Positions 225-41,714 of a DNA stretch of 64,000 nt are shown piece after piece. Source of the DNA: a bacterium. Its GTDB lineage: Bacteria > J088 > JAWLBW01. The notes below the pieces were generated by a model that saw only the letters and a program-made list of their open reading frames with translations, was not told the DNA's origin and searched no databases. Each line of letters starts with the position of its first letter. Within the stretch, counting starts at the first letter, position 1. The DNA lies in NCBI GenBank assembly GCA_041690355.1, contig JAWLHK010000021.1, positions 1 through 64,000 on the forward strand, written 5' to 3'. The translations under genes were made by a program, and so were the position numbers.

Positions 225-1424
225 TCACGCGAAGGGGAGCCCGTACTGCTGGGCGCCCGCAGAGACGACCGGCGCCGCACCGCGCGAGACCTCGCCGTGG
301 CGGTCGGGCAGCACGAGCGTGAACGTCGAGCCCACGCCGGGGGTGCTCGATGCGTCAATCGTTCCGCCGAGCCGCTGCACGATGCGTCCGGCGAGCGCCA
401 GCCCGATGCCGGTGCCGCCGACGGCCCGGGTCATGGACCCGTCACCCTGCCAGAAGGCGTCGAAGACGAGGGGAAGGTCGGATTGGGCGATGCCGCGCCC
501 CGTATCTGAGACGGTGATCTGCAGCCGTTCGGCGTCGATGCGCCTGGCGCCGACCGAGATGCTCCCCCGGTCGGTGAACTTCACGGCGTTTTCGAGCAGG
601 CACCGCAGGGCCTCCTGCAGCAGGCGCCGATCGGTCCAGGCGCCGACGGCGGCGGGCACGCCCAGGTACAGTTCGAGCCCCTTCGCCTCGACGAGCGACA
701 CGAAAGGTCGCGCCGCCTCGCGCACGACTTCGGCCAGATCGACCTTGGCGATGACCGCGCTCGAGCGATCGGCCTGCAGTTTGGCGAGCAGGATGAGCCG
801 GTTCAGCAGGCTCAGAAGCCGTTCGCCGTTATCGCGGATGCGTCCGACGCACTCTTCCTGCTTGGGCGAGAGCTGGTTGCGATCGAGCAGGATCTCAGAG
901 AACCCCAGGATCGCCGTCAGCGGCGTGCGCAGCTCGTGGCTGAGGTTCGAAAGAAACTCTTCCTTCAACCGTTCGGCATGCCGCGCCTGATCGGCGAGCA
1001 CGGCCACCCTGCGTTCGAGGTCGAGAATGCGGGCGTGGTCGGCGAGCGCGGCCGCGGCGATGCGCATCCGGCCGCTCAACTGGCGAAGCTGGTCGAGCAC
1101 CGACGCAACCGGCGCTTCGGCAAAGCAGACGCGCAGCCAACCGGCCGCGGAACCGCCGGCACCGATGGCGAAGCTCCAGACGCCGGCATGCTCGCCGACG
1201 CCGGCATGCTCGGCATCAGCGGCGGGCAGAGACTCCTCGACGTACGGAGCCAGCGGCGCGCCGCTGCGCGCCACGACCTCCTGCGTCGCCCCCCGTTGCA
1301 GCAGGACTTCAAAGGACGCCAGGCCCCAGAGTTCACACAGCTCGTTGCCGAGCGCATGCAACTCTTCAGGCGTGCGAATCGCGGCGACACGCTCCCAGAG
1401 AGAGTCAGAAGTTGGCTGCCACAT
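225..1424 (-). CDS. Sensor histidine kinase, cytoplasmic, with an N-terminal GAF-like region
   Basis: 399-aa ORF. H-box FLSNLSHELRTPLTAILGFSEIL and an HATPase_c region (DTGRGI, GGTGIGLA). Confidence 0.8.
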   Translation of the reverse strand: MWQPTSDSLWERVAAIRTPEELHALGNELCELWGLASFEVLLQRGATQEVVARSGAPLAPYVEESLPAADAEHAGVGEHAGVWSFAIGAGGSAAGWLRVCFAEAPVASVLDQLRQLSGRMRIAAAALADHARILDLERRVAVLADQARHAERLKEEFLSNLSHELRTPLTAILGFSEILLDRNQLSPKQEECVGRIRDNGERLLSLLNRLILLAKLQADRSSAVIAKVDLAEVVREAARPFVSLVEAKGLELYLGVPAAVGAWTDRRLLQEALRCLLENAVKFTDRGSISVGARRIDAERLQITVSDTGRGIAQSDLPLVFDAFWQGDGSMTRAVGGTGIGLALAGRIVQRLGGTIDASSTPGVGSTFTLVLPDRHGEVSRGAAPVVSAGAQQYGLPFA

Positions 1425-1629: not shown

Positions 1630-3560
<1,931 letters not shown>

Positions 3561-3561
<1 letters not shown>

Positions 3562-3980
3562 CGATTTACGATTGACGATTGACGAGTTACAGACACGACG
3601 ACTCCGTGCCACTCGTCACTCGGACAAGCGCCGAGCGCCAAGCACTGAGCGCTGAGCAAACAAGAGACCGTGATGGCCGAGGCTCACCTGTGAAGTGCCC
3701 CCATCGGGGGAACCCTTGCTGCAAACGCATCCATGATGGCGGGGGAAAATTCCGTCACTCGTCACTGGACAAGCGCCGAGCGCCAGGCACTGAGCGCTGA
3801 GAAAACGAGCCAACAAGAACGTGGCGTTCCTTGCCCTTGCCGGAAAACTCGTCACTCGTCACGGGATTTGACGATTGACGATTTACGATTTTCAGGCACG
3901 ACGGTCACTCGACCAACGGTCCGGTCACTTGCCGGCAAATCGCAAATCGCAAATCGTAAATCGTAAATTGTAAATTGTAA
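3561..3980. repeat. Composite intergenic repeat element. Heptamer arrays (GACGATT x4 at the left; AAATCGC/AAATCGT/AAATTGT x7 at the right, in inverted orientation) flank two copies of a ~65-bp unit: ACTCGTCACTSG-GACAAGCGCCGAGCGCCARGCACTGAGCGCTGAG.AAAC.AG
   Basis: Read directly at 3565-3600, 3600-3665, 3755-3830 and 3856-3975. It sits between two convergent gene ends. Confidence 0.85.
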
Positions 3981-3981
3981 A

Positions 3982-4659
3982 TCAGGCTGCGCCCTGGTCG
4001 CGCAGGAAGCGGCGCAGCACCGCGGCCCCCTCGCCGTTGAAGCTCACGAACTTGAGCCCCACCTGGTAGCCGTCACCCGACTGCAGGATGCGCGTGACCT
4101 CGGCCTTGCAGATGACCGGCGCCGACTCTTCGCTGACCTGCATCTTGAGCCAGAGCGCGAAGCCCGCCTCGAAATCGCAGCTCGCCATGCGCATGCGCAT
4201 GCCCGTGGCGCTGATGTCGAGCGACTCGCCGCGCAGCTCGCCCGCGTTCGACGCCCCGTCGATCTTGATGCGGATGGGTACGCGCACCGCCTTGCGCAGG
4301 TTCGTATGGAGCAGCCCCGCGAGCAGCGCCTCGAGATCTTCGACCTTCACCGGCTTGGCGAGCACGTGATCGGCCCCGGCGCTGCGCGCCCGCTCGATCA
4401 TCCACTCGTCGTCTTCGACCAGCAGCACGAGCACCGTCCCCTTCGCCGCCGGATCGGCCTTGAGGTCCCGGGCGACTTCGTCGCCGGCGATGTCGGGGAG
4501 CGCGATGTCGAGCACGGCCACCTCGGGGTGATCGAAGCGCACCGCGTTGGCGGCGGCGATGGCCGAGGTCACGCCGCGCACCTGGAAGGTGCTGCGGGCA
4601 AGCAGGTTCTGACGTAACGCCGCGACGTCCGGGTCGATGGTGGCCAGCAGTATCTTCAA
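3982..4659 (-). CDS. Response regulator receiver fused to a PilZ (c-di-GMP binding) domain
   Basis: REC domain at the N-terminus (VLDIALPDIAGDE, KP). The C-terminus carries the PilZ motifs RKAVRVPIR and DISATG. The ATG overlaps the serB stop (ATGA). Confidence 0.75.
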   Translation of the reverse strand: MKILLATIDPDVAALRQNLLARSTFQVRGVTSAIAAANAVRFDHPEVAVLDIALPDIAGDEVARDLKADPAAKGTVLVLLVEDDEWMIERARSAGADHVLAKPVKVEDLEALLAGLLHTNLRKAVRVPIRIKIDGASNAGELRGESLDISATGMRMRMASCDFEAGFALWLKMQVSEESAPVICKAEVTRILQSGDGYQVGLKFVSFNGEGAAVLRRFLRDQGAA

Positions 4660-5858
4660 CTCGTCGCCGTCCCCTGTGTCAGCTCGTCGATATCACGCTG
4701 GTTGATACCGAGCAGGTACAGAATGCTGTCCAGGCTGCCGGTGATGGTGCCGTCGGCTTCTTCGCGCACCCGTCGTTTGGCGTTGAAGGCAATCCCGAGT
4801 CCGGCCCGGGAGAGCATCTTGAGATCGTTGGCGCCGTCGCCGATGGCGATCACCTGATCCAGGCCGATCCCCTCGCGGCGGGCGATGTCTTCGAGAAGTT
4901 CGGCCTTCACGTCGGCGTCGATGATGCGGCCGCGCACGTTGCCGGTCAGGCGTCCGCCCTCGATCTCGAGCTCGTTGGCGAAGGCGTAGTCGAGGTCGAG
5001 ACGCTTCTGGATGCCGTCGGTGAAGAAACGGAATCCGCCCGAAATGACCGCCGTCGTGTAGCCGAGGCGGTGCAGGACGCTCACCAGGGTCTCGGCCCCC
5101 GGGGTGAGCGAGATGCCGGCCGCCACCTGGGCGAGCACGTCGGCAGGGAGTCCCTTCAGCGTCGACACCCGCTCGCGCAGCGAGGCCTTGAAGTCGAGCT
5201 CGCCGCGCATGGCCCGCTCCGTAATCGCCGAAACCTGCTCCTTCTTGCCGGCGGCGGCGGCCAGCTCGTCAATGACTTCGCAGGTGATGAGGGTCGAATC
5301 CATGTCCATGACGACGAGCCGCTTCGAGCGGCGGAAGATGGATTCGCGCTGCACGGCGACGTCGATGCCGAAGCGTTCGTTGGCTTCGAGCAGCATCCCC
5401 TTGAGCTGGCGCGGTTCGATCTCGCTCCAGTTCGAAACGACCAGTTCGACGGTGGTGAGCGCCCCTTCGGTCAGGCGCTGAATCTTTTCGATGTTCACGC
5501 CCGCCGACGCGATCACGCCGGCGACCCCCTGCATGGCGGCGGCCGTCATGTTCGCCCCCATGAGCGTCACGACATAACGGTGACGCTGGCGATGGCGCTT
5601 GTGCTCTTCGAGGGTCAGCTGCTTCGACTCGAAGACGAGCTCGTGGGCGTGGGCGACCTGTCGCAGCTCTTCGAGCACGCCGGCGGTATCTACCCGGGGG
5701 GCGACTTCGAAGAGAAAGGCGAGAATGAGCAGGTTGTGGATGACGACCTGTTCGACGTCGACGAGCACGGCGTCGTAACGCGCGAGCACCGCCGTCAGGT
5801 CCCGCGTGATGCCGGGGGTGTCATGGCCGCGAACGGTAATGAGAATGTGCTGAGACAA
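4656..5858 (-). CDS. serB: Phosphoserine phosphatase SerB with N-terminal ACT-like domains
   Basis: HAD motifs VVMDMDSTLI, IAIGDGANDL and GLGIAFNAK. The 400-aa length is typical of long-form SerB. Confidence 0.85.
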   Translation of the reverse strand: MSQHILITVRGHDTPGITRDLTAVLARYDAVLVDVEQVVIHNLLILAFLFEVAPRVDTAGVLEELRQVAHAHELVFESKQLTLEEHKRHRQRHRYVVTLMGANMTAAAMQGVAGVIASAGVNIEKIQRLTEGALTTVELVVSNWSEIEPRQLKGMLLEANERFGIDVAVQRESIFRRSKRLVVMDMDSTLITCEVIDELAAAAGKKEQVSAITERAMRGELDFKASLRERVSTLKGLPADVLAQVAAGISLTPGAETLVSVLHRLGYTTAVISGGFRFFTDGIQKRLDLDYAFANELEIEGGRLTGNVRGRIIDADVKAELLEDIARREGIGLDQVIAIGDGANDLKMLSRAGLGIAFNAKRRVREEADGTITGSLDSILYLLGINQRDIDELTQGTATS

Positions 5859-5980
5859 GCAGAAAATACCGGATGCGTAGCAGAAAACGTTCAGTGTACC
5901 ACTCCCTCGAATCCCGTCCAGTTGCGCCGCAGCGCTCCACTCGTCGCCTTCTCGCCTATGGGGTATGATGTGGAACCTCT

Positions 5981-7792
5981 ATGAATCGCATCCTGGACTC
6001 CGACTGGTGGCGGCGCCTCCTGTACGAGCGCACCGCGATCTTTCTCGCCATTCCCCTCGTCGGGAATCTGACGCTCTTCGGGCTCGACTGGCTGGCCCAG
6101 CCCGAGCGCTTTGCCGCGCTGGCCCGCTGGCGCATCGGGATTGAGGTTGGCCTTCTGGCCGCTCTGGCCCTGCGCAGCCGCCCCTTCGGCCGACGGCGCC
6201 CCGAGTGGGTGGTCGCGCTGGGGGTGCTCTCGCTCACCCTGCCCCTCGTCTTCATGACCCGGCTGCAAGGAGGATTCACGGGCAGCTACGTGTGGGGCAT
6301 CTCGCTGACGCTGGTCGGGGCCGCCGTCATGGTGCCCATGTCGTGGCGCCGCCATGCCGCGCTGCAGGCAGTCAGCGTGACCGCCTACCTCGGCGTGAAT
6401 GCGGAAAGCGTCGACGTCGCCGCCCAGTTCAGCGCCATGGTCAGCAACCTTTTCGCCCTCTCGTGGTTCTGCGTCGTCGCCGCCCTCGGCGTCTTCTATC
6501 AGGAACAGCTGTTGCTGCGCGAGCGCACCGCCCTGAACGCCGTCGAGAGCCTCAACCGCCGCCTGCTCGCCCACGACGCCGAGAAGGACCGCTTTCTTGC
6601 CAACGTCAGCCACGAGCTGCGCACCCCGCTCACGGTCGTGCTCACTACCTTTCGCACGCTGGCGCGCCGCAGCGACGCGGCCGGGTTCGGCCGCGAGCTG
6701 GTCGCCGGCTCGCGCAGCGCGGGGCGCCTCGCCCTGCTCATCAACGAGATGCTCGACATGACCCGCTTCGCGCGCGACGAAGCGGCCCTCGACCGGCGCT
6801 CGACCGATCTCGTCGCCCTGGCCCGCGATCTCGTCGGCTATTTCCAGCGCGCCCGCCTGCGCCGCGTCATCACCCTCGCCTCGCCGGTCGACAACCTGCT
6901 GGCCGAGGTCGACGCCGAGCAGGTGCGCAAGGTCCTGCTGCACCTGCTCATGCACGCGGTCAAGTATACGGAACCCGAGGCGGGCGACATCCGCGTCGAG
7001 CTGCACGACGAGGGGGCCGAGGTGCGCCTGCGGGTCCGCGACAATGGCCTCGGCCTGCCCGACGACCGGCTGCAGTCGGTGTTTCTCCGCTTTCTCCGCG
7101 ACCGGAATTCCCCCGGTACCGGCAACGGCGAGACGGCGCGCCCCCCGGCCGGGCCGGCCGCCCACGACGGGGGCGACGAAGACATCGGCCTCGGGCTCGC
7201 GCTCGCCCAGGAAATCGTGCGCCTGCATGGCGGTCGCATCCAGCTGGCCAGCGCCCCCGGCCAGGGGTGCACCTTCGATGTGCTGCTCCCGAAAGGCAAT
7301 CCCCGGGCGGCCCCCGAAGGCGATCCGCAGGTGCGCGACACGCTGGGCGAAATCCTCCCCGCCCTGCTTGATCCGCTCGCGCCCGAGCCGGGGATGGAAT
7401 CGCTGGCCGACGCCGACGACCGCCCCACCGTGCTCGTCGTCGAAGACGAGCCCGACATCCGCCGCTACCTCGAGGTCATCCTGCGCGACCGCTTTCGCGT
7501 GGTCGTCGCCGAAGACGGCCTGGCCGGCCTCAAGATCGCCGTCGTCGCCCGTCCCTGCCTGATCATCCTCGACGAGCGCATGCCGCGCATGAACGGCACC
7601 GAGCTCACGCAGCGCATCCGCGAAGACGTCCTGCTGCGCCGGACGCCGATCGTCATGCTCACGGCCTACGCCGACGCCGAGACCGAGCGCCGGGCCCATG
7701 CCGCGGGGGTCGACGCCTTTCTGACCAAACCCTTCGCCGATCACGCCCTGCACCGCGAGATCGACCGGCTCCTCCCTCGCGAAGCGGTCTGA
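5981..7792 (+). CDS. Hybrid sensor histidine kinase: membrane N-terminus, HisKA, HATPase and a C-terminal receiver
   Basis: Several hydrophobic segments at the N-terminus. H-box ANVSHELRTPLTVV, G-box GLGLALAQ and a C-terminal REC domain (VLVVEDEPDIRRYL, ILDERMPRMNG, TKP). Confidence 0.85.
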   Translation: MNRILDSDWWRRLLYERTAIFLAIPLVGNLTLFGLDWLAQPERFAALARWRIGIEVGLLAALALRSRPFGRRRPEWVVALGVLSLTLPLVFMTRLQGGFTGSYVWGISLTLVGAAVMVPMSWRRHAALQAVSVTAYLGVNAESVDVAAQFSAMVSNLFALSWFCVVAALGVFYQEQLLLRERTALNAVESLNRRLLAHDAEKDRFLANVSHELRTPLTVVLTTFRTLARRSDAAGFGRELVAGSRSAGRLALLINEMLDMTRFARDEAALDRRSTDLVALARDLVGYFQRARLRRVITLASPVDNLLAEVDAEQVRKVLLHLLMHAVKYTEPEAGDIRVELHDEGAEVRLRVRDNGLGLPDDRLQSVFLRFLRDRNSPGTGNGETARPPAGPAAHDGGDEDIGLGLALAQEIVRLHGGRIQLASAPGQGCTFDVLLPKGNPRAAPEGDPQVRDTLGEILPALLDPLAPEPGMESLADADDRPTVLVVEDEPDIRRYLEVILRDRFRVVVAEDGLAGLKIAVVARPCLIILDERMPRMNGTELTQRIREDVLLRRTPIVMLTAYADAETERRAHAAGVDAFLTKPFADHALHREIDRLLPREAV

Positions 7793-8320: not shown

Positions 8321-9994
<1,674 letters not shown>

Positions 9995-10014
9995 GCGGCC
10001 TTTTCCGCTCGAAA

Positions 10015-10056
10015 CTCGAAGCCCCGGGGGTCGCCCCCCGGGGCTTTTTTCGTTTC
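10015..10056 (+). terminator. Rho-independent terminator after groEL
   Basis: GC hairpin gccccgggggtcgccccccggggc followed by a T-run (ttttttcgttt). Confidence 0.85.
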
Positions 10057-10299
10057 CGCGCGCAGAACGCCTGTACCGTTCTGCAACGCCCCGGCGCCCG
10101 AAACGCCATGCGCCCCGCGCGCCCGCGGGCCGGTGTGTCTTCTCGTTACAACCCGCCCCGATTATCGCTGTGCCGCCGCCGCACGCTGCCCTCCTGCCCC
10201 CCTCCGGGCCGCTGTCCGTGCGGTTGAGCCCAAAAATTACGATAGCAATCCGGGCATCGATCGGCTATGCTGTAAGGCGACTCCGAATACGGCCACTCC

Positions 10300-11376
10300 A
10301 TGGAACAATCCGCGGAACAATCCGCCTCGCACATCCTCGTAGTCGACGACGTCGAAATGAACCGCGACGTGCTGATGCGCCGTTTGACCCGGCTCGGCTA
10401 CCGGGTGACGCAGGCCGAACATGGCCGCCAGGCCCTCGAGCTGATGCGCCGGGAGCCCTTCGATCTCGTGCTGCTCGACATCATGATGCCCGAGATGAAC
10501 GGCTACGAGGTGCTCGAAACCCTGAAACAGGATCCGGCCCTGCGCCACGTGCCGGTGATCATGATCTCGGCCATCGACGAAATCGACAGCGTCGTGAAGT
10601 GCATCCAGCTCGGGGCCGAAGATTATCTCGCCAAGCCCTTCAACCCGACCCTGCTCAAGGCCCGCATCGGCGCCTGCCTCGAGAAGAAGCGCCTGCACGA
10701 CCAGGAGCGCTCCTACCTGGCGCAGATTGAAGCCGAAAAGAGCCGGTACGAAGATCTGCTCCACGTCATTCTCCCCTCGGAGATCGTCACCGAGCTCAAG
10801 GAAAGCAATGCCGTGCGCCCGCGCCGGTTCGAAGGGGTCGCGGTCATGTTCTGCGACATCGTCGGCTTCACCAGCTACTGCCAGGAGCACTCCCCCGAAG
10901 AGGTGGTCAGCAACCTGCAGCAGGTGGTCGAGGTCTTCGAAGAGGTGGCGCACCGGTTCGAGCTCGAAAAAATCAAGACCATCGGCGACGCCTTCATGGC
11001 CGCCAGCGGTCTGCTGACCCAGACCCCCGACCCCGTGCTGCGCAGCGTGCAGTGCGCCCTCGAGATGATCAAGGAAGTGCGCGCGCTGCCGGTGGGCTGG
11101 CAGATTCGCGTCGGGGTGCACGTCGGCCCCGTGCTGGCCGGCGTCATCGGCCGCCGCAAGTACCTCTTCGACCTCTGGGGCGACACGGTCAACGCGGCGG
11201 CGCGCCTCGAAAGCCACGGCGTGCCCGGCTACGTGAACCTCAGCCGCGAGGCCTGGGAGCACGTGGCCGATCGCTGCATCGGCGCTTCACGGGGAACGCT
11301 TGCGGTGAAGGGGATCGGCGAGATGGAGATGTTCAAGGTCGAAGGGATCAAGCCGGCGCCGACTGCCCCGGTGTGA
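10300..11376 (+). CDS. Response regulator receiver fused to a class III adenylate/guanylate cyclase domain
   Basis: N-terminal REC domain (ILVVDDVEMNRD, LLDIMMPEMNG, AKP). C-terminal CYCc motifs (VAVMFCDIVGFT, KTIGDAFMAASG, GDTVNAAARLES). Its 3' end overlaps the convergent CheY-like gene by 29 nt. Confidence 0.85.
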   Translation: MEQSAEQSASHILVVDDVEMNRDVLMRRLTRLGYRVTQAEHGRQALELMRREPFDLVLLDIMMPEMNGYEVLETLKQDPALRHVPVIMISAIDEIDSVVKCIQLGAEDYLAKPFNPTLLKARIGACLEKKRLHDQERSYLAQIEAEKSRYEDLLHVILPSEIVTELKESNAVRPRRFEGVAVMFCDIVGFTSYCQEHSPEEVVSNLQQVVEVFEEVAHRFELEKIKTIGDAFMAASGLLTQTPDPVLRSVQCALEMIKEVRALPVGWQIRVGVHVGPVLAGVIGRRKYLFDLWGDTVNAAARLESHGVPGYVNLSREAWEHVADRCIGASRGTLAVKGIGEMEMFKVEGIKPAPTAPV

Positions 11377-11731
11377 GCAGCGCCTCGATCTTGTCCACGA
11401 GCCGCTTGAAATCGACCGGCTTCGTGTCGTAGTCGTCGCACCCTGCCGCCAGCGTCTTCTCCCGGTCACCCGACATGGCATGCGCCGTGAGCGCGATGAT
11501 GGGGATCGGGTTGAGCTCCGGCTGCGCCTTGATGCGCCGCGTCGCCTCCCAGCCGTCGATGACGGGCAGGTCCATATCCATCAGAATCAGGGCCGGACGA
11601 AGTTCTCCGGCCATGCGCACCCCCTCGCCACCGTCGACTGCCATCGCGACGTCAAACCCTTTGCGCTGCAGGCGCCGCGACAGCATGTCGCGGTTGGCCT
11701 CATTGTCTTCTACGAGGAGAATCAGGGGCAT
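11348..11731 (-). CDS. Single-domain CheY-like response regulator
   Basis: 127 aa. LILLVEDNEANRD, ILMDMDLPVIDG and TKP. Confidence 0.85.
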   Translation of the reverse strand: MPLILLVEDNEANRDMLSRRLQRKGFDVAMAVDGGEGVRMAGELRPALILMDMDLPVIDGWEATRRIKAQPELNPIPIIALTAHAMSGDREKTLAAGCDDYDTKPVDFKRLVDKIEALLTPGQSAPA

Positions 11732-11734
11732 GAA

Positions 11735-13444
11735 TCAGGACTCCACGGTAGGTGCCTGGGACTGCAGAATACGCTTTACCTCGGCGAGCAGTTCTTCACG
11801 TTTGTAGGAACCTTTCTGCATGATGCGCTCGACCGAGCCGCTCAGCCTCAGGCGGTCTTCGGAGGTGAGATCCTTCGCCGTCACGACGACGATGGGCACT
11901 TCGCGCCACTGGAAGTGGCTGCGCAGTTCGCTCACAAAGGTGAAGCCGTCCATCTCGGGCATCATCAGATCGAGCAGGATGAGAGACGGCACCTGCTTCA
12001 CGACCTGCTCGAGGGCCAGCTTTCCGTTGGCGGCCTCGCGCACCGAAAGGCCATCCTTCTCGAGCATCTTGCGCATCATGTCGCGCGTGATGTTGTCGTC
12101 TTCGACGACGAGAATGTCGGTGGAGTCCTGCGAGCGATGCCGCCGGACAATCGCCAGCAGCCGGTCTTTGTCGACAGGCTTGGTGAGGTACTCCGAGACC
12201 CCCAGGGCATAGCCCATTTCCTTGTTGTCGACGATCGTCAGCATGACCACCGGAATGTCGGCGGTCTCCGGGTCGGCTTTCAGGGCGGTCAGCACCGCCC
12301 AGCCGTCCATGCCGGGCATCATGACGTCGAGCGTGATGAGCGCCGGACGCTGTTCGCGCGCAAGGCGCAGCCCTGCCTCGCCGTCGGTGACGAATTCCAC
12401 CGACACCCCCTCTTTCGACAGGTACCGGGTGAGCAGATCGCCCACGGCCGGATCGTCGTCGATGGCGAGCACGAACTGTCCGGGCGCAATGCGCACCGGC
12501 ATGGTCGACTCGGCTTTCGCGCCTTTCTGCACCTGCGCGGGAAGCCGTACGGTAAAGGTCGACCCCTTTTCGTACTCGCTGGCGACCGAAATGTTGCCGC
12601 CCATCATGATGCAGAAGCGCTGGCTGATGGCCAGGCCCAGCCCGGTGCCGCCGTACTTGCGCGTCGTCGAGGAGTCGGCCTGCGTGAATTCCTGAAAGAG
12701 CTTTTCCATCTGCTCCGGCGTCATGCCGATGCCGGAATCGGTCACGCGCATGACGATGAATTCCGGAAGGCCCGCGCGGGCAGGTTCCCGGTCGATCTCG
12801 AGGCGGATCAGCCCCTGCTCGGTGAACTTCGAGGCGTTGCTCAGCAGATTGAACAGGGTCTGCCGGACCTTGGTCAGATCGGCGTGCAGCTCGCCGACTT
12901 TGGGCGGACAGACGACCTCGAGCCGGTTCCCCTTCTTGTCGACCAGGGGCTGGATGGTGGTCACGACGTCCTGCAACATGGTCTCGACGCGGAACGTCTC
13001 GAGATAGAGCTCCATCTTGCCGGCTTCGATCTTCGAGATGTCGAGGATGTCGTTGATGAGCGCGAGCAGATGCTTACCGGCCGAGCTGATCTTGCGCAGA
13101 TCGGGAATCAGCTCTTCGGCGCCGAGGTCCTCGACCTCTTCTTCGAGCATCTCACTGTAGCCGATGATGGCGTTGAGCGGCGTGCGCAGCTCGTGACTCA
13201 TGTTCGCGAGAAAGGCGCTTTTGGCCTGGCTCGCCTGGATGGCGTGATCCCGGGCTTCGGACAACTCAGCCGTGCGATCGTGCACCATCTCTTCGAGGTG
13301 CTCGGCGATCTGCGTGAGCTCCTGATTGACGAGATGGGCCTGATAGGTCTTCTCTTCGGCGATCTTTTCAGCCGCCTTGCGCGCCGCTCGCTCGCGCTCG
13401 AGACGGCGCTTGAGAATTTCGATTTCTTTGCCCTGATCGCTCAT
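11735..13444 (-). CDS. Hybrid histidine kinase with no sensor domain (HisKA, HATPase, two C-terminal receivers); an H-NOX-associated kinase of the HnoK type
   Basis: H-box ANMSHELRTPLNAIIGYSEML and G-boxes GGTGLGLAI. Two REC domains (LAIDDDPAVGD...LDVMMPGMDG and ILVVEDDNITRD...LDLMMPEMDG). The ATG at 13444 overlaps the H-NOX stop (ATGA), so I prefer it to the ORF-track start at 13480. Confidence 0.8.
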   Translation of the reverse strand: MSDQGKEIEILKRRLERERAARKAAEKIAEEKTYQAHLVNQELTQIAEHLEEMVHDRTAELSEARDHAIQASQAKSAFLANMSHELRTPLNAIIGYSEMLEEEVEDLGAEELIPDLRKISSAGKHLLALINDILDISKIEAGKMELYLETFRVETMLQDVVTTIQPLVDKKGNRLEVVCPPKVGELHADLTKVRQTLFNLLSNASKFTEQGLIRLEIDREPARAGLPEFIVMRVTDSGIGMTPEQMEKLFQEFTQADSSTTRKYGGTGLGLAISQRFCIMMGGNISVASEYEKGSTFTVRLPAQVQKGAKAESTMPVRIAPGQFVLAIDDDPAVGDLLTRYLSKEGVSVEFVTDGEAGLRLAREQRPALITLDVMMPGMDGWAVLTALKADPETADIPVVMLTIVDNKEMGYALGVSEYLTKPVDKDRLLAIVRRHRSQDSTDILVVEDDNITRDMMRKMLEKDGLSVREAANGKLALEQVVKQVPSLILLDLMMPEMDGFTFVSELRSHFQWREVPIVVVTAKDLTSEDRLRLSGSVERIMQKGSYKREELLAEVKRILQSQAPTVES

Positions 13445-13992
13445 ACGGCAACCCGGCGCGTCAGTGCGAACTCGACGCACGTCTGCGGCTCGGTCTCGAT
13501 CGTTCTGCGCTGAATGTCGACCTGCTCGCCGAAGTGCTCAAAGCAGCCCCGGATGAGCCCTTCGGCCAGATCGGCGAACGGGCGAGCCGAGCGGTACGTC
13601 ATGATGAGCGTGTCCTCGTTCGGGCGTTCGTATTCGAAGCCCGGCAGCTCGGCATCAGGGTAGAGTTTGCGCACTTCGACATGGATATAGTTGTCGACGC
13701 CGCTCAGGAACTCGATCGCGTTCGATTTACCCTCGAAGAACTGGGGATAGCCCGAGGCGAAGCGCCCGAACAGGTATTTGCCGAAGGCCTGGAGGAGGTC
13801 GGGGATGGGCGTATTCGTTTCGGCGCTCAGATTCTTGACGAGCGCGACCATCTCTTCGTGATCGTAGGTGCCGACCGCCGTGTACACCCCGCCCGACGGA
13901 AGGTCGGCCTTGGTCACGATGTTATCGGCGACTTCGGGGGAGAAAACCTCTTCGACCATCTCGATGAACTCGGTAAAGACCATTCCCTTCAC
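13441..13992 (-). CDS. hnoX: H-NOX (heme nitric oxide/oxygen binding) domain protein
   Basis: 183 aa. N-terminus MKGMVFTEFIEMVEE. Proximal His in IHVEVRKLY. The Y-x-S-x-R heme-propionate motif is MTYRSARPF. Overall it resembles stand-alone bacterial H-NOX proteins. GTG start with RBS AAGGAGG 5 nt upstream. Confidence 0.8.
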   Translation of the reverse strand: MKGMVFTEFIEMVEEVFSPEVADNIVTKADLPSGGVYTAVGTYDHEEMVALVKNLSAETNTPIPDLLQAFGKYLFGRFASGYPQFFEGKSNAIEFLSGVDNYIHVEVRKLYPDAELPGFEYERPNEDTLIMTYRSARPFADLAEGLIRGCFEHFGEQVDIQRRTIETEPQTCVEFALTRRVAV

Positions 13993-14094
13993 GGTGACCT
14001 CCTTGGGCTATTCGGGTTATCCTTCAGCGTACCGGAAAGGAAGCCGCGCCGCCGCCCCGATTCGGTAAGATATTCCCTAGAAAGAACATGCGTC

Positions 14095-16059
14095 CTATTT
14101 GACCCGGGAACCGGGCTTCACGTCGCCCGCGGGGGTGACGACATGCAGACCGGCCTCGTCGCTGGCAGCGAGAATCATCCCCTGGCTCTCGATGCCCATG
14201 AGCTTCGCCGGCTTCAGGTTCGCGACCACCGTCACCGTCTTGCCCACGAGCGCTTCGGGGGCATAGTGGTTCGCGATGCCGGCCACGATCTGGCGCGGCT
14301 TGTCTTCTCCGAGATCGACCTGGAGGCGCAGAAGTTTTTCGCTCTTGGGCACCCGCTCGGCCTCGAGCACCTTGCCGACCTTCAGCAGGATCTTCCCGAA
14401 CTCCTCGAACCCGATTTCGGCGGGCGGCTCGACAGGGGCCTTCCCCTTCTTTTCGGGCTTCTTCTCTTTTTCGGCTTTCGGTTCCTGCGCGGCCGCGGGT
14501 GCTGCAGGCGCCGCGCCCACCCCGGCCAGGTCGACCTGGCTGCGCACCGAGACGGCCTTCAGCTTTTCTTCGGCGTCGATGCGCGGGAAAAGCGACTCGG
14601 GCTTCTCGAGAACGGCCCCGGAGGGCAATCCGCCCCATTGGAGTTCGCGCGGCGTCTCGGTCACCCCGAGGGCCTTCAGGGCCTTTTCGGCGGTGGCCGG
14701 CATGACCGGCTGGATCATGCGGGAACAGTAGCGCAATCCTTCGAGCGCCGTGTAGAGCACATCTCCGAGCTTCTCCGTTTCGCCCTGTTTCGCGAGGGTC
14801 CAGGGCGCACTCTTGTCGACGAAGCCGTTCAGCTCGCGCACGAGCACCCAGATCTTTTCGAGGGCCGTCGAGAAGGCGGCCGCCTCGATGTGCTCGCGGA
14901 ACTCGGTCCACGTGCGCTCGGCCAGCGCGCGGATCTCGCCGCCGCCGGCCGCGGGGGGTATGGTTCCGCCCAGGTATTTCTCGAGCATGCTCACCGTGCG
15001 CGAGAGCAGATTGCCCAGGTCGTTGGCGAGCTCGCTGTTGATGCGCTGGATGAGCGCCTTGTGCGAAAAGTCGCCGTCGGCGCCGAAGGGTACCTCGCGC
15101 AGCAGGAAGTAGCGCACGGGATCGACGCCGTACTCGTCGAGCAGCAGGTTCGGATCGACCGCGTTGCGCAGGCTCTTGCTCATCTTCTGCCCTTCGACCG
15201 TCCACCAGCCGTGGGCGAAGACGCTGTGCGCGGGGGGCAGACCGGCAGCCATGAGAAACGCCGGCCAGTACACGGCGTGAAAGCGCACGATGTCCTTGCC
15301 GACGAAGTGGTAATCCGCCGGCCAGTAGGTCTTGTACTTCTCGGTCCCCTCGCCGCCGAGCGCCGAGACGTAGTTCGCGAGTGCGTCGAACCAGACGTAG
15401 ATGACATGTTCCGGATCGTCGGGCACCTGGATGCCCCACTTGAAGCTCGTGCGCGAAATACTGAGGTCGCGCAGTCCCCCCTCGATGAAACTGACGATTT
15501 CGTTGCGGCGCGTGGCGGGCTGCACCGCCTGGGGGTTGGCGCGGATCCACTCGAGCAGCGGCTTTTCGAAGGCGCTCAGCTTGAAGAAGTAGCTCTGCTC
15601 CTTGAGCTTCTCGACGGGGCGCGCGCAGTGGGGGCAGTTGCCGTCGACGAGCTGCGTCTCGGGGATGTAGGTCTCGTCGGGCACGCAGTACCAGTCTTCG
15701 TACTCGTCGAGATAGATGTAGCCGTTCGCCTTGACGCGCCGCCAGAGGTCCTGCACGAAGGCCTTGTGCCGGTCTTCGGTCGTGCGGATGAAGTCGTCAT
15801 TCGAGATGTCGAGCCGCCGCCACAGCTCCTGAAAGCGCTTCACGACCCGATCGGCGAGCTGAATCGGCGTCTCGCCCGCCTCGGCCGCGCTCTTCTCGAC
15901 CTTCTGCCCGTGCTCGTCGGTCCCGGTGAGAAAGTAGACGTCGCGCCCGAGCAGACGGTGATGGCGCGCAAGCACGTCGGCGGCCACCGTCGTGTAGGCA
16001 TGCCCGATGTGCGGCACGTCGTTGACGTAGTAGATGGGGGTCGTTACATAGAACTTCAC
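14095..16059 (-). CDS. metG: Methionyl-tRNA synthetase with a C-terminal tRNA-binding (EMAP/Trbp111-like) domain
   Basis: KFYVTTPIYYVNDVPHIGHAYTT (HIGH), KMSKS, zinc knuckle CPHCARP and the C-terminal ...VGKVLEAERVPKSEKLLRLQVDLGE. Start assigned to GTG at 16059; the ORF track extends to 16620 through GC-rich sequence. Start confidence is moderate. Confidence 0.85.
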   Translation of the reverse strand: MKFYVTTPIYYVNDVPHIGHAYTTVAADVLARHHRLLGRDVYFLTGTDEHGQKVEKSAAEAGETPIQLADRVVKRFQELWRRLDISNDDFIRTTEDRHKAFVQDLWRRVKANGYIYLDEYEDWYCVPDETYIPETQLVDGNCPHCARPVEKLKEQSYFFKLSAFEKPLLEWIRANPQAVQPATRRNEIVSFIEGGLRDLSISRTSFKWGIQVPDDPEHVIYVWFDALANYVSALGGEGTEKYKTYWPADYHFVGKDIVRFHAVYWPAFLMAAGLPPAHSVFAHGWWTVEGQKMSKSLRNAVDPNLLLDEYGVDPVRYFLLREVPFGADGDFSHKALIQRINSELANDLGNLLSRTVSMLEKYLGGTIPPAAGGGEIRALAERTWTEFREHIEAAAFSTALEKIWVLVRELNGFVDKSAPWTLAKQGETEKLGDVLYTALEGLRYCSRMIQPVMPATAEKALKALGVTETPRELQWGGLPSGAVLEKPESLFPRIDAEEKLKAVSVRSQVDLAGVGAAPAAPAAAQEPKAEKEKKPEKKGKAPVEPPAEIGFEEFGKILLKVGKVLEAERVPKSEKLLRLQVDLGEDKPRQIVAGIANHYAPEALVGKTVTVVANLKPAKLMGIESQGMILAASDEAGLHVVTPAGDVKPGSRVK

Positions 16060-20452: not shown

Positions 20453-22795
20453 ATGCAGAACGATCACGACCTCCCGCCTTCCCGAGAGTCCGAGCGCGAC
20501 ATCCATGCGCTCATTCTCGAAGCCGCCGACGTCGGCACCTGGGAATGGACGATTCCCGCCAACACCGTCAGATTCCGCGGCGTGCAGTGGAGGCTGATGG
20601 GTTTCGCATCCGTCGAGCAGGACGAGATCACCCTCGAGCAAATCTTTGCGCGCATGCACCCTGAGGATCGGGAGCGGGTCGCCGCGAAGCTTCGCGATGC
20701 GCTCGAGGGTCGCAGGGACTACGAAGACGAATTTCGCATGGTCTGGCCCGACGGCAGCGTGCACTGGCTGCTCGGCAAGGGACGCACCGATTATGACGCC
20801 GAAGGCCGGCCCGTACGCATGCTCGGCGTGAACCTCGACATCACCGAACGCCGGCGCACCGAAGAGGCGCTGACCGCCAGCGAGCGCGACCTGCAGGAGA
20901 GCCGCGAGCAGCTCGAACTGGCCATTCGCACGTCACGCATCGGATTCTACGACTGGAACATCCGCTCCGACCGCCTGACATTCAGCGACCAGATGCGGCG
21001 GGACTGGGGACTGCCCGAAGACACCGAGGGCTACACGCTCGACGACGCGTTATCCCACATCCATCGCGACGACCGTGAGCGTGTCAACAATCTCATCCGG
21101 CAGGCCGTAGACGCGCGCGTACCGTACCATACGGAGTACCGGGTCGTGCAGCCCGGCGGCGACATCCGCTGGATCGAGGTCACCGGCACGGTCACGTACG
21201 ATGAAGACAGAGTCCCCGTCCGATTTTTCGGGACCTCAGTCGACATCACCGAACGGCGGGCGCTCGAAGAACTCCGCGTGAGGGCCGCCCAGCGGCTCGA
21301 GCGGTTCGCCGAAGCCATGCCCCAGATGGCGTTCATCGCCGACGCCCAGGGAAATATCACCTATTTCAATCGGCGCCATTACGAGTATTTCGGTATCAAA
21401 CCCGGCGAGAGCGAAGGGTGGCGCTGGAGAGATGCGTCCATCGTGCACCCCGACGACCTCGAACGCACCCTCGCCCGCTGGACGCAGAGCCTGCAGACGG
21501 GAGAACCCTATGAGATCGAATATCTCCTGCGGCGGCATGACGGCGCTTACCGCTGGCACCTCGGCCGCGCGGTGCCCGTCCGCGATGGACAGGGTGCCGT
21601 CGAACAGTGGTTCGGCACCAATACCGATATCGACGACCATAAGCGCAATGCGCTGGAAATCGACCGGTTGCTCAAAGCGGTCGAATACGAGAACAGCCGC
21701 TTCGAAGCCGTCATGCAGCAGATGCCCGCGGCGGTCATCATCGGCGAAGCCCCCTCGGGCAGGCTTCTGTTCTCGAACGACAAGATGTTCGAGGTCTGGG
21801 GGCACGACCTGATCCCGAGCTCGAACATCGAAGAGTATGGCAAGTGGGTCGGCTTCCATCCCGACGGCACGCGATACGAGGGTCATGAGTGGCCGCTGGC
21901 CCGCTCGATCGCCCGCGGCGAAGTCGTCACCAACGAAGACGTCGACATCCTGCGCGGCGACGGCAAACGCGCCGTGCTGCGTTTGAGCTCGACGCCGATT
22001 CGCGATCGCGCCGGACACATCATGGCGGGCGTCGTCATCTGCCAGGACGTGACGGAGCTGGTCGAGGCCATCCGCAGCCGCGACGACTTCCTTTCAATCT
22101 GCTCTCACGAGCTGAAAACCCCCTTGACGACCTTGAGCCTGCTGACCCAGTCGTCCCGGCGCGGCATCGCGCGCGGAAATCCGAAGGTTTTCTCGCCCGA
22201 AAACGTGCACAGCATGCTCGAGCAGACCGAACGCCAGGTCGACCGCCTTGCCCGCCTGGTCAATGATATGCTCGACGTTTCGCGGATCCGCGGGGGCAAA
22301 CTGCACCTGGAGATGCAACCGGTCAACCTGTGCGATCTGGTGCGCGGCGCCGTCGACAAACTGCGCCCTTTGCTGCGCGCCGCGGGAGGCGACCCTGATT
22401 TGTCGCTCTGTGAAACCGCCTGGTGTGCGGGCGACCCCTTTCGACTCGAGCAGGTTGTCGTCAATCTCCTGACCAACGCAGCCCGCTACGGAAAAGGCAG
22501 GCCGGCGTCGATCGCGGTGCGGACCGACGGGAATTCGGTTTTCATCAGCGTGCGCGATGCGGGCATCGGTATCTCGAAGGATGATCAGGAGCGAATCTTC
22601 GACCGATTCGAACGCGTGGTCTCTCGAACCGAACTCTCGGGCCTCGGGCTCGGCCTCTACATCTCGAAACAGATCGTCGACAGTCATGGGGGAACCATAA
22701 GCGTGCAGAGCGAACCGGGCCGCGGTTCGACGTTCGAGGTTCGACTGCCGGCCATCCCTCCCCCACCCGCCGACGTCGCGGCGCCGCCCGTATGA
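20453..22795 (+). CDS. Multi-PAS/PAC sensor histidine kinase
   Basis: 780 aa with four PAS/PAC-like repeats (WEW..., DITERRRTEEAL, TDIDDHK...). H-box FLSICSHELKTPLTTL. N and G boxes (NLLTNAARYG, GLGLGLYISK). Confidence 0.85.
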   Translation: MQNDHDLPPSRESERDIHALILEAADVGTWEWTIPANTVRFRGVQWRLMGFASVEQDEITLEQIFARMHPEDRERVAAKLRDALEGRRDYEDEFRMVWPDGSVHWLLGKGRTDYDAEGRPVRMLGVNLDITERRRTEEALTASERDLQESREQLELAIRTSRIGFYDWNIRSDRLTFSDQMRRDWGLPEDTEGYTLDDALSHIHRDDRERVNNLIRQAVDARVPYHTEYRVVQPGGDIRWIEVTGTVTYDEDRVPVRFFGTSVDITERRALEELRVRAAQRLERFAEAMPQMAFIADAQGNITYFNRRHYEYFGIKPGESEGWRWRDASIVHPDDLERTLARWTQSLQTGEPYEIEYLLRRHDGAYRWHLGRAVPVRDGQGAVEQWFGTNTDIDDHKRNALEIDRLLKAVEYENSRFEAVMQQMPAAVIIGEAPSGRLLFSNDKMFEVWGHDLIPSSNIEEYGKWVGFHPDGTRYEGHEWPLARSIARGEVVTNEDVDILRGDGKRAVLRLSSTPIRDRAGHIMAGVVICQDVTELVEAIRSRDDFLSICSHELKTPLTTLSLLTQSSRRGIARGNPKVFSPENVHSMLEQTERQVDRLARLVNDMLDVSRIRGGKLHLEMQPVNLCDLVRGAVDKLRPLLRAAGGDPDLSLCETAWCAGDPFRLEQVVVNLLTNAARYGKGRPASIAVRTDGNSVFISVRDAGIGISKDDQERIFDRFERVVSRTELSGLGLGLYISKQIVDSHGGTISVQSEPGRGSTFEVRLPAIPPPPADVAAPPV

Positions 22796-23190
22796 CTGCC
22801 CGAACCATCCTCTGTGTCGAGGACGACCCCGATATCCTGCACTACATGACGCTTGTGCTCGAGGAGGAAGGATACCGCGTTCTCCAGGCCGCCAACGGCC
22901 GCATCGCATACGATCTGCTGCGCCGGCTGCCCCCCGCCGAATATCCCGACTGCATCCTGCTCGATCTGATGATGCCCGAGATGAACGGACGCGAACTGCT
23001 TGCGCGATTGCAGGCAGAGCGCCCCGGCGATCTGGCGCGGATACCGGTCATCCTCGTCACGGCCGAGGGGCGCCCCGAAGAGAATCCTGCGGGCCTCGGT
23101 GAACGGCATAGCAAGATCAGCAAGCCGATGAACCTGGAGACGCTTCTCGCCGTCGTCGCCCGCCAATCGTCCGGAGACTTCGACTCCTAA
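22792..23190 (+). CDS. Single-domain response regulator
   Basis: ILCVEDDPDILHYM, LLDLMMPEMNG and SKP. Its ATG overlaps the upstream HK stop (ATGA). Confidence 0.85.
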   Translation: MTARTILCVEDDPDILHYMTLVLEEEGYRVLQAANGRIAYDLLRRLPPAEYPDCILLDLMMPEMNGRELLARLQAERPGDLARIPVILVTAEGRPEENPAGLGERHSKISKPMNLETLLAVVARQSSGDFDS

Positions 23191-38712: not shown

Positions 38713-40080
38713 TCAGACCGTGCGCGAGAAGCGGGCCGTCTTTTCGGGCGCGTTCAGGTACTCGTCGAAGACCATGCAGATGTTGCGGATGAGAAAGCGC
38801 CCCGTCTCGGTCACGCGCATCCCCCCCGTGTGAAACTCCACCAGCCCGTCGTCGGCGAAGGTCTGCAGGGCCGTCCACTCAGGACGGAGCGCCTCCTGCG
38901 CGTCGGTTCCCATGCGCCGCGAGAGTTCCGCATAGTCGAGCGCGAAACGGCTCATGAGGGTCATGATGATCCAGCGCCGCAGCTGGTCGGCGGCGGTGAG
39001 CGTCACGCCCCGTTCGGTGGGCAGTTTTCCCGCAGTGAGCCGAGCTGAGTATTCATGCTCGGTCTTCACGTTCTGCACATAGGCGTCGCCGAGGTCGCTG
39101 ATCGACGTGACGCCGATGCCGATCATGTCGGCGCCGGCGCGGGTCGTGTAGCCCTGGAAGTTGCGGTGCAGCGTGCCGTCGTCGAGGGCGCGGCTGAGCT
39201 CGTCGTCGGGCAGCACGAAATGATCCATGCCGATGTAGCGGTATCCGGCCGCCGTCAGCCGGTCGACCGCGAGCGCGAGCATGGCCAGCTTTTCGGCGGC
39301 GTTGGGGAGTTCTTCGGCGCGGATGCGGCGCATATGGTTCTTGAGCGTCGGCAGATACGCGAAGTTGAAGAAGGCGATGCGGTCGGGGCGCAGCGTGATC
39401 GTGCGCGCCAGCGTGTCTTCGAGCGTGGCCAGGGTCTGCCGGGGGAGGCCGTACATGAGATCGAGGTTCACGCTGTTGAAGCCGAGCGCGCGCAGCTTCT
39501 CCATGCGCCCGGCCGTGAGCTCGAACGGCTGGATGCGGTGCACCGCCTTCTGCACGTCGGCATCAAAGTCCTGCACCCCCATGCTCGCGCGCGTGAACCC
39601 GATGGCCCGCAGCGCTTCGAGGTGCAGATCGCTCGCTTCGCGGGGGTCGATTTCGACGCTGATCTCCGCATCCTTCGCGAAACGGAAGCGCTCCCGGATC
39701 GCCTCGCCCAGCCGCACGATCAGCTCGGGGCGCAGAAAGGTCGGCGTCCCCCCGCCCCAGTGCAGCTGCGTCACCTCGCGTCCCGTCTGCAGCAGCGGGG
39801 CCACGAGGTCCATCTCGCGCACCAGTTCATCCACGTAGGGGTGGGCGCGCTCGCGATTGCCCGTGTAGATGACGTTGCAGCCGCAGAAGTAGCAGACCTG
39901 CTTGCAGAACGGCAGGTGAAAATACAGGGAGAGCGGGCGCGAGACGGCCCCTGCGCGCAACTTCTCGGCGTGCCGGTCGGGGCCGAACGACGGCGAGAAC
40001 TCGAGCGCCGTCGGATAGCTCGTGTAGCGCGGGCCGGGCCGATCGTACTTGCGGACGAGATGGACAGGGAGGGTAGTCAT
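38713..40080 (-). CDS. hemN: Oxygen-independent coproporphyrinogen III oxidase (radical SAM)
   Basis: N-terminus KYDRPGPRYTSYPTALEF and the radical SAM site LYFHLPFCKQVCYFCGCN. Confidence 0.9.
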   Translation of the reverse strand: MTTLPVHLVRKYDRPGPRYTSYPTALEFSPSFGPDRHAEKLRAGAVSRPLSLYFHLPFCKQVCYFCGCNVIYTGNRERAHPYVDELVREMDLVAPLLQTGREVTQLHWGGGTPTFLRPELIVRLGEAIRERFRFAKDAEISVEIDPREASDLHLEALRAIGFTRASMGVQDFDADVQKAVHRIQPFELTAGRMEKLRALGFNSVNLDLMYGLPRQTLATLEDTLARTITLRPDRIAFFNFAYLPTLKNHMRRIRAEELPNAAEKLAMLALAVDRLTAAGYRYIGMDHFVLPDDELSRALDDGTLHRNFQGYTTRAGADMIGIGVTSISDLGDAYVQNVKTEHEYSARLTAGKLPTERGVTLTAADQLRRWIIMTLMSRFALDYAELSRRMGTDAQEALRPEWTALQTFADDGLVEFHTGGMRVTETGRFLIRNICMVFDEYLNAPEKTARFSRTV

Positions 40081-40175: not shown

Positions 40176-40526
40176 TCAGGAATGTGCGCCGGAGCGGAAC
40201 ATCCGGATGCGATTGGCGAGGCGCTCCAGCGCCCGGTCGACGTCGGATGCGAGGTCTGCTGTCGTCACGCGGAACACGCTGCGTGGCGCCTCCCCCGCCG
40301 GGGGCGCGTCACCGTGCACCTCGACGCTGAAGCCGCCGTCGAGCGTCGCGACGCGGAACTCTCGCCCGTCACGTTCTTCGCGACCCGGGCGTGCCCTGGG
40401 GCCGTACCGCCGCGCGACCGCGCTCCAGAAGATCGCTTCGGCGAGCGCTTCGATTTCGTTGCGCACGCGGGTGCGCTCATGGTTACGGGTGCGAGCGTGC
40501 GATGCGGTTTGCGTATTCATGGGCAT
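40176..40526 (-). CDS. Hypothetical protein
   Basis: 116-aa ORF that overlaps the upstream membrane-protein gene by 44 nt. Uncertain. Confidence 0.25.
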   Translation of the reverse strand: MPMNTQTASHARTRNHERTRVRNEIEALAEAIFWSAVARRYGPRARPGREERDGREFRVATLDGGFSVEVHGDAPPAGEAPRSVFRVTTADLASDVDRALERLANRIRMFRSGAHS

Positions 40527-41556: not shown

Positions 41557-41714
41557 GCCCCTGTCTCCAAGCAATGTCCGTGCCGAGTGCGTCTCTTGAG
41601 GGGATCCGGGTCCGCCCGGTGTGTCGAATCGACGCAGTACGGACGGGGGCGGGCGGGTCGACGCAAGCGTCGGCTCGCCGCGCCCGGTTCCCAACGCCGG
41701 AGGGGGGGAGTGGG

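Follow-up and report, generated by a model that had tools for sequence, protein, structure and literature searches.

A bacterial H-NOX gene clustered with a hybrid kinase, a CheY-like regulator, and a receiver-cyclase: a probable nitric oxide-responsive phosphorelay with predicted cyclic AMP output

We analyzed 64,000 nt of bacterial DNA (positions 1 to 64,000 of contig JAWLHK010000021.1 in assembly GCA_041690355.1; GTDB lineage Bacteria; J088; JAWLBW01), referred to below as the window. Four adjacent genes at positions 10300–13992 encode a stand-alone H-NOX protein, a sensor-less hybrid histidine kinase, a CheY-like response regulator, and a receiver fused to a class III cyclase. Judging from their sequences, these genes probably constitute one phosphorelay that would respond to nitric oxide (NO) and have cyclic AMP (cAMP) as its output. 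The wider proposal, to which we give an even chance, is a bacterial NO-to-cAMP pathway that would be the functional counterpart of animal soluble guanylate cyclase (sGC), split into separate proteins and linked by a phosphorelay. It would have arisen when an H-NOX protein replaced the built-in sensor of a widespread, uncharacterized gene cassette, which exchanges its inputs and its outputs (cyclase, PP2C phosphatase, Ser/Thr kinase, or HD-GYP) freely. The domains and key residues of all four proteins are intact, which supports the NO/cAMP relay.

The receiver-cyclase gene (10300–11376, forward strand, 358 aa) converges on the other three genes, all on the reverse strand: the H-NOX gene, hnoX (13441–13992, 183 aa), then the kinase gene (11735–13444, 569 aa counted from its ATG), then cheY (11348–11731, 127 aa). 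The kinase ATG (13444–13442) overlaps the TGA of hnoX (13443–13441) in an ATGA stop/start motif at 13441–13444, and cheY begins after a gap of just 3 nt from the kinase stop. Through this overlap and this short gap, hnoX, the kinase gene, and cheY are translationally or tightly coupled. The kinase frame also stays open up to a GTG at 13480; the publicly annotated protein is the 569-aa product of the ATG. At their convergent 3′ ends the cyclase and cheY genes overlap by 29 nt (11348–11376). Coordinates and Pfam assignments agree here with a preliminary description of this DNA, which had reported the ATGA coupling of hnoX to a sensor-less kinase with two receivers, the CheY-like gene after it, and the convergent receiver-cyclase with its 29-nt overlap. 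The public protein collection lists all four proteins with identical ends, each as a singleton, from one 83-kb NCBI contig.

The cluster is flanked by groES-groEL on one side and metG on the other. The GroEL protein is 79%–81% identical to proteins named for Sandaracinaceae, Polyangia, Myxococcales, Sandaracinus, and Vulgatibacter, and by this comparison its source is probably an uncultured bacterium of Myxococcota. A terminator-like hairpin (10018–10047, forward strand; 13 pairs, 10 of them G-C, followed by a T run) lies after groEL and parts groESL from the cyclase gene, so that the latter would need a promoter of its own within 10048–10299. No sigma-70-like promoter was found in a scan of 9900–14300, a negative that carries no weight in an organism of this kind. 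Across the four proteins Pfam detects only HNOB, HisKA, HATPase_c, Response_reg, and Guanylate_cyc domains; the same scan found no GGDEF, EAL, or HD-GYP domain in them.

The H-NOX protein matches the Pfam model HNOB (PF07700) over positions 1–162 of 163 (E = 3.6e-46; 157.5 bits, cutoff 25.5). A homologue search returned 4731 homologues, and the closest solved structures are the bacterial H-NOX entries 6ocv, 6bde, and 6bdd (E values of 1e-42 to 1e-44). We aligned the protein with Tt H-NOX (sequence checked against 1U4H; structures 1U4H/1U55). Its His104 falls on the proximal His102 of that protein, Pro117 on Pro115, and the Y-x-S-x-R motif Tyr133/Ser135/Arg137 on positions 131/133/135, so that both the proximal His and the heme motif originally ascribed to it are in place. 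The distal pocket is apolar, with Phe9, Leu74, and Leu142 at the positions of Trp9, Asn74, and Tyr140, the hydrogen-bonding triad that stabilizes O2 in Tt H-NOX. An apolar distal pocket is a hallmark of NO-selective H-NOX proteins, and from a pocket without the Tt hydrogen-bond donors we predict that the window protein is of the NO-selective type. It has only two Cys residues, which makes unlikely a four-ligand zinc/redox site of the kind known from Shewanella and Vibrio H-NOX proteins.

These residues also bear on the possibility that the system works as described but that its H-NOX protein senses O2, CO, or the cellular redox state, the last in a heme-free or oxidized form. Ligand selectivity is not readable with certainty from sequence, and PMC7108781 offers a precedent in the heme-independent redox mode reported for Vibrio cholerae H-NOX. 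However, the replacement of all three triad residues by Phe9, Leu74, and Leu142, the intact heme-binding residues, and the presence of just two Cys all speak against a ligand other than NO, and we regard it as quite improbable.

The kinase carries a HisKA domain (4.6e-20), a HATPase_c domain (1.7e-27), and two Response_reg domains. Residues 1–73, which precede HisKA (from residue 74), form a charged helical stretch, and neither Pfam nor inspection of the sequence detected a sensor domain or transmembrane segment in the protein. The H-box His84 is intact, as are the N- and G-box motifs, and the two receivers (REC1, with Asp373; REC2, with Asp492) each keep the acidic pocket, the phospho-accepting Asp, the Thr, and the Lys. 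No NCBIfam equivalog scored above its cutoff for the kinase; the NahK/ErcS "near_NosP" model reached 200 bits, short of its cutoff of 400. The CheY-like protein is a canonical receiver (Response_reg, 1.9e-25; Glu8/Asp9, Asp52, Thr82, and Lys104).

The fourth protein joins a receiver (Response_reg, 9e-32) to a class III cyclase domain (Guanylate_cyc, PF00211; 9e-46, 156 bits, cutoff 21.9), which, with the HNOB match, upholds both family assignments of the preliminary description. Its receiver residues are canonical (Asp16/Asp17, Asp60, Ser90, and Lys112), and a helical linker (residues 124–170) leads to a catalytic domain in which all six catalytic residues are kept: the metal-binding Asp186/Asp230, the substrate pair Lys226/Asp291, Asn298, and Arg302. 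This domain aligns with the C1 and C2 domains of the mammalian adenylate cyclases AC5, AC8, and AC9 and with PDB entries deposited as "Adenylate cyclase" (4p2f, 7yz9, and 5o5k, which we take to be mycobacterial Cya). Lys226 and Asp291 align with the Lys and Asp of mammalian adenylate cyclase C2 domains, not with the Glu/Cys pair of guanylate cyclases, and this predicts cAMP rather than cyclic GMP (cGMP) as the product.

Would the output nevertheless be something other than cAMP, either because the domain makes cGMP or because it is a noncatalytic regulatory domain? PF00211 spans adenylate and guanylate cyclases alike, and guanylate cyclases are among the PDB matches. The best of those matches are adenylate cyclases, however, and the metal-binding residues, Asn298, and Arg302 are all present beside the C2-type substrate pair, so that we see very little likelihood in either version; cGMP in particular is disfavored by the substrate pair. 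The cAMP/cGMP link first put forward for this cluster accordingly survives in one half: the partnership with a receiver-cyclase is backed by the cassette and by the related locus described below, whereas the cGMP option is not.

Receiver-cyclases are common (>8000 homologues in our search). Among the best 80 metagenomic relatives of the window kinase (47%–61% identity; loci L034–L113), all have the architecture HisKA-HATPase-REC-REC, where REC denotes a receiver, and most have long N-terminal sensor regions. Fifty of the kinase genes have ≥2.3 kb of sequence on their 3′ side; in 36 of these a co-directional CheY gene follows the kinase, and in 28 a gene for a receiver joined to a further output (REC-X). 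The window proteins resemble their counterparts at these loci throughout: 52%–68% identity for the kinase core, 50%–75% for CheY, and 48%–73% between the cyclase receiver and the REC-X receivers. Receiver and linker of the REC-X proteins are conserved whatever output follows, with the pattern "...VVRCIxLGAEDYLxKPFNPxLLxARIGACLEKKRLRD..." and the linker "LEKKRL(R/H)D".

Pfam analysis of the 44 complete REC-X genes found a cyclase domain (Guanylate_cyc) in 29, SpoIIE/PP2C in 10, Pkinase in two, and HATPase_c in two; HisKA, which may accompany any other domain, was present in 19. Among the nearest relatives of the window cyclase (65%–68% identity), L033 and L118 fit the same pattern: the order is PAS-kinase, CheY, receiver-cyclase, and the receiver-cyclase gene comes directly after those for CheY and the hybrid kinase, with overlaps of 4 nt. 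At L117 a partial 118-aa gene, whose family is unassigned, lies just upstream with the same 4-nt overlap, close to the start of the contig. From these comparisons we conclude that the window kinase, CheY, and receiver-cyclase are three members of a recurrent cassette, HK(REC-REC) followed by CheY and then by a receiver-output protein, of which the cyclase is the commonest output. The window departs from the rule of three co-directional genes, since its cyclase gene is convergent, as it also is at L031 and L032. H-NOX is a rare input to such kinases, present in only two of the 80 loci.

Two further features of the cassette outputs were noted. In the 19 outputs with HisKA, this domain stands before the receiver, in some proteins as two copies, and its H-box (RHELRTPLN) is intact; HATPase_c is found in only two of the 44 (examples of HisKA-only outputs: L034:5035–6828, L040:7891–9519, L044:6420–7955, L036:2662–4368, and L050:7837–9828). 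These HisKA-only domains are 47%–55% identical to the DHp domain of the H-NOX-linked kinase in the window and have no counterpart in the window cyclase. They look like Spo0B-like phosphotransfer modules fused to a terminal regulator, and cassettes that contain them would then be four-step relays. Separately, the receiver-linker clade to which the window cyclase belongs is fused to the SpoIIE/PP2C domains and to the two Ser/Thr kinases in the tally (for example, L048:12127–13512, L070:4355–6082, L036:2662–4368, L085:5092–6474, and L050:7837–9828). By these domain assignments a single receiver type is predicted to drive at least four kinds of output, including the HD-GYP-type output of the L115 locus described below.

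The surroundings of H-NOX genes in other organisms give a different picture. We scanned one genome per GTDB species and obtained 27 H-NOX loci with H-NOX identities of 43%–57%. At most of them hnoX is followed immediately by a kinase gene, usually with one receiver, and in the loci sampled these one-receiver kinases are only 35%–48% identical to the core of the window kinase. No class III cyclase was found by tblastn within 10 kb of hnoX at any of the 27 loci, and four further H-NOX loci on long contigs (L114, L115, L116, and L120) lack a cyclase as well. A cyclase as a general partner of H-NOX is therefore rejected. In all, about 34 other H-NOX loci were examined and none has a cyclase, and no paper found in literature searches for H-NOX together with adenylate cyclase or cAMP appeared, from titles and abstracts and from term checks in two papers, to describe such a circuit; the matches were unrelated uses such as a two-hybrid assay. 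The pairing is indeed unusual, as had been claimed at the outset.

The one relative that shares the pairing comes from a metagenome (JGI sample 3300048837) and is spread over two contigs. One of them, L002, carries an H-NOX gene (78% identity) and kinase residues 33–244 up to the contig end; the other, L031, carries a receiver-cyclase (81%), a convergent CheY gene (80%), and kinase residues 246–569 up to the contig end. Kinase identity to the window is 79%–86% over the two pieces. Their ends, "...GMTPE" and "(Q)MEKLF...", meet within the kinase gene, where a single nucleotide is lacking between them, and we read the two contigs as a single putative locus broken by assembly. The 29-nt overlap between the cyclase and CheY genes is present in L031 and also in L032. 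The outer flanks of the joined locus consist of a transglutaminase-like gene and a CoaE gene on one side and of genes for an unannotated 557-aa protein and a MazG-like protein on the other, and tblastx found no match to these flanks anywhere in the window. The same four genes with the same overlap thus occur between unrelated flanks, which indicates that they travel as a unit, the inverted cyclase gene included. Together with the cassette statistics, this argues against the cyclase being a chance neighbor. Among the loci examined here, the combination of H-NOX and receiver-cyclase is confined to one clade, made up of the window and this one metagenomic relative.

Several observations weigh against a relay of all four genes. 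The closest H-NOX protein in a metagenome-assembled genome, GCA_041687475.1 (80% identity), is encoded with a kinase at L001, where the kinase gene is followed by an unannotated 158-aa open reading frame (ORF) and a peptidase gene, without CheY or cyclase. Another contig of that genome, L033, has a different kinase, whose C-terminus (58%) is followed in the same direction by CheY (67%) and a receiver-cyclase (68%). The separate contigs and kinases indicate that H-NOX and the cyclase are not obligatorily linked, and any link between them in that organism would run in trans or through the second kinase. Within the window itself, the cyclase gene points the opposite way from its counterparts in the usual cassette and forms its own transcription unit, so it is not co-transcribed with the kinase gene. 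We found no gene for an Hpt or DHp-only protein among the ORFs scanned at 0–24 kb and seven more ORFs at 38.3–43.7 kb, and when the DHp-only domains of the cassettes served as tblastn queries against the entire window, only known kinases matched. Such a domain is part of 19 of the 44 cassette outputs. With no such protein found near the cluster, the route from the hybrid kinase to the cyclase receiver is not obvious, and three other kinases of the window (225–1424, 5981–7792, and 20453–22795) could also supply that receiver.

Taken together, the convergent orientation, the arrangement in GCA_041687475.1, and the several further kinases could mean that the system consists of no more than hnoX, the kinase gene, and cheY, while the cyclase is wired to other kinases and holds its position as a leftover of the ancestral cassette. 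We find this unlikely, given that a relative with unrelated flanks keeps the four genes in the same geometry and that the kinase, CheY, and the cyclase receiver each have a counterpart among the three members of a single recurrent cassette. Conservation of the cyclase beside hnoX, on which the preliminary description had made its reading depend, is thus partial: the gene is kept in L002 and L031 and lacking at L001 and at the 27 genomic loci. As a separate observation, the L001 kinase (2156–3899) is split into overlapping frames, 2156–2839 and 2601–3899, which reflects either a frameshift or pseudogene or an assembly error.

A sister locus shares the H-NOX input. At L115 an H-NOX gene (62%) is followed by a sensor-less HK-REC-REC gene (core 61%, REC1 60%, REC2 56%), a CheY gene (71%), and an output gene of the form HisKA(weak)-REC(57%)-HD_5/HD, of HD-GYP type. 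By its domain content this appears to be a cassette with H-NOX input but an output of the cyclic di-GMP (c-di-GMP) phosphodiesterase type, for which H-NOX circuits already offer precedents. The combination of an H-NOX input with an HD-GYP-type output indicates that inputs and outputs can be swapped around a constant core, and the window system is most readily viewed as the result of exchanging the output, or just as well the input, of the constant core of kinase, CheY, and receiver.

Other H-NOX loci show further arrangements. L114 (5455–10525) and L120 (8001–14750) share a recurrent layout in which H-NOX is followed by PAS-kinase-REC, CheY, and GAF-kinase-REC; a sigma-54 activator (REC-AAA+) adjoins it, divergent upstream in L114 and downstream in L120. 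In L094 (1–5512) an H-NOX gene (57%) and a kinase gene (core 62%) are divergent from a gene for a sensor-containing HK-REC-REC protein (1033 aa) followed by CheY (66%), and the contig ends before any third gene; here two kinases may share one downstream relay.

In the relay that we infer for the window, NO binding, contact between H-NOX and kinase, the partners and direction of phosphotransfer, cyclase activity, and the direction of the change in cAMP would be as follows. The heme of the H-NOX protein would bind NO, and the NO-bound protein would by direct contact alter, and probably inhibit, autophosphorylation of the kinase translated from the same mRNA; to our knowledge, NO-bound H-NOX inhibits the kinase in every characterized H-NOX/kinase pair. 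Phosphate would pass from kinase His84 to Asp52 of CheY and to Asp60 of the cyclase receiver, while Asp373 and Asp492 in the kinase's own receivers would compete for phosphate or tune its flow. The CheY-like protein may act as a sink, a branch, or an intermediate. The state of the cyclase receiver would be relayed through the helical linker to a homodimeric class III catalytic domain that converts ATP to cAMP. The sign of the response is a guess by analogy with CyaC, in which phosphotransfer to the receiver activates cAMP synthesis (Kasahara and Ohmori 1999, J Biol Chem 274:15167, cited in PMC1183210): if phosphorylation likewise activates the window cyclase, NO would lower cAMP.

We find no support for a wider NO or low-oxygen response in the window, which had been suggested from a REC-PilZ gene, hemN, and an NnrS-like membrane protein. 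The first two genes are real by Pfam (REC-PilZ, 3982–4659; hemN, 38713–40080, with Radical_SAM and HemN_C). For the membrane ORF at about 40.5–41.6 kb Pfam gave no match up to E ≤ 1, so that the NnrS assignment is not sustained; the other genes lie 6–27 kb from the cluster, and the flanks of the related loci match nothing else in the window. This ORF (about 40483–41560, reverse strand) encodes a very hydrophobic protein of ~357 aa that starts MRTCVLRAAALF....

Elsewhere in the window, the REC-PilZ gene (reverse strand) is accompanied by a gene for a SerB-like ACT-ACT-HAD phosphatase (4656–5858, reverse strand) and a divergent HisKA-HATPase-REC kinase gene (5981–7792, forward strand); the genes of 3982–7792 are a possible c-di-GMP-linked module, positionally unrelated to the H-NOX cluster. 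The gene for a multi-PAS histidine kinase (20453–22795, forward strand) overlaps at its 3′ end a single-domain receiver ORF (stop-to-stop 22585–23190, forward strand), whose product is 51% identical to the cyclase receiver. Two giant ORFs on the reverse strand lie in a stretch of slightly lower GC content: one (46665–54152, 2495 aa) with CarboxypepD_reg, Big_13, and BNR matches and the other (55216–60903, 1895 aa) consisting mostly of Kelch repeats, with a match to a glyoxal-oxidase-like N-terminal domain.

Bacterial H-NOX signaling as described so far runs through c-di-GMP enzymes, quorum-sensing relays, or chemotaxis receptors. A cAMP route, if true, would extend the response of bacteria to NO by a further second messenger, and a partnership of NO sensor and class III cyclase would have been assembled independently in bacteria with a coupling device other than that of sGC. 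The common and apparently unstudied three-gene cassette, with its swappable inputs and outputs, is a natural test bed for receiver-driven class III cyclases, and since all parts of the window system are small, soluble proteins, the predictions are directly testable in vitro.

Of the known systems, HnoX/HnoK of Shewanella oneidensis and Vibrio cholerae, in which HnoK acts on HnoB, HnoC, and HnoD, shares with the window a stand-alone H-NOX gene beside that of a sensor-less kinase. The window kinase has the HnoK-type features of adjoining hnoX, lacking a sensor domain of its own, and keeping its H-box His intact. In both, one kinase would serve several response regulators and a second-messenger nucleotide would change, as predicted here. 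HnoK is not a hybrid kinase, however, and its regulators have EAL, degenerate HD-GYP, and DNA-binding outputs (c-di-GMP), whereas in the window two receivers are fused to the kinase and a class III adenylate cyclase is the predicted output. HahK (Vibrio fischeri and Pseudoalteromonas) and HqsK (Vibrio harveyi/parahaemolyticus) also pair H-NOX with a hybrid kinase and feed NO into a phosphorelay, but they have one receiver and take an Hpt route (LuxU, HptB-like, or SypF) to quorum-sensing or Syp regulators; in contrast, the window kinase has two receivers, no Hpt was found nearby, and the output is a cyclase. The preliminary description had stated that known H-NOX kinase circuits signal through c-di-GMP, and such circuits exist, but titles and abstracts of published work point to quorum-sensing and Syp biofilm routes as well.

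Unlike most members of its cassette family, the window system has a kinase without a large N-terminal sensor region and an inverted cyclase gene whose product has no HisKA-only domain. The fusion of a receiver to a class III cyclase recalls the cyanobacterial CyaC and CyaB of Stigmatella/Myxococcus; CyaC combines a kinase of its own and two receivers with the cyclase in a single chain, whereas kinase and cyclase are separate proteins in the window, and we know of no heme NO sensor linked to the CyaC/CyaB enzymes. With animal sGC the window system would share the control of a class III cyclase by an H-NOX heme domain upon NO binding, and the helical segment before its catalytic domain can be aligned with the corresponding segment in sGC and in mammalian adenylate cyclases. 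But sGC is a fused heterodimer (H-NOX-PAS-coiled coil-cyclase) with a Glu/Cys pair that makes cGMP, whereas in the window sensor and cyclase are separate, the proposed coupling is a His-Asp phosphorelay, there is no HNOBA domain, and the Lys/Asp pair predicts cAMP. The resemblance to sGC is thus one of function, not of family membership.

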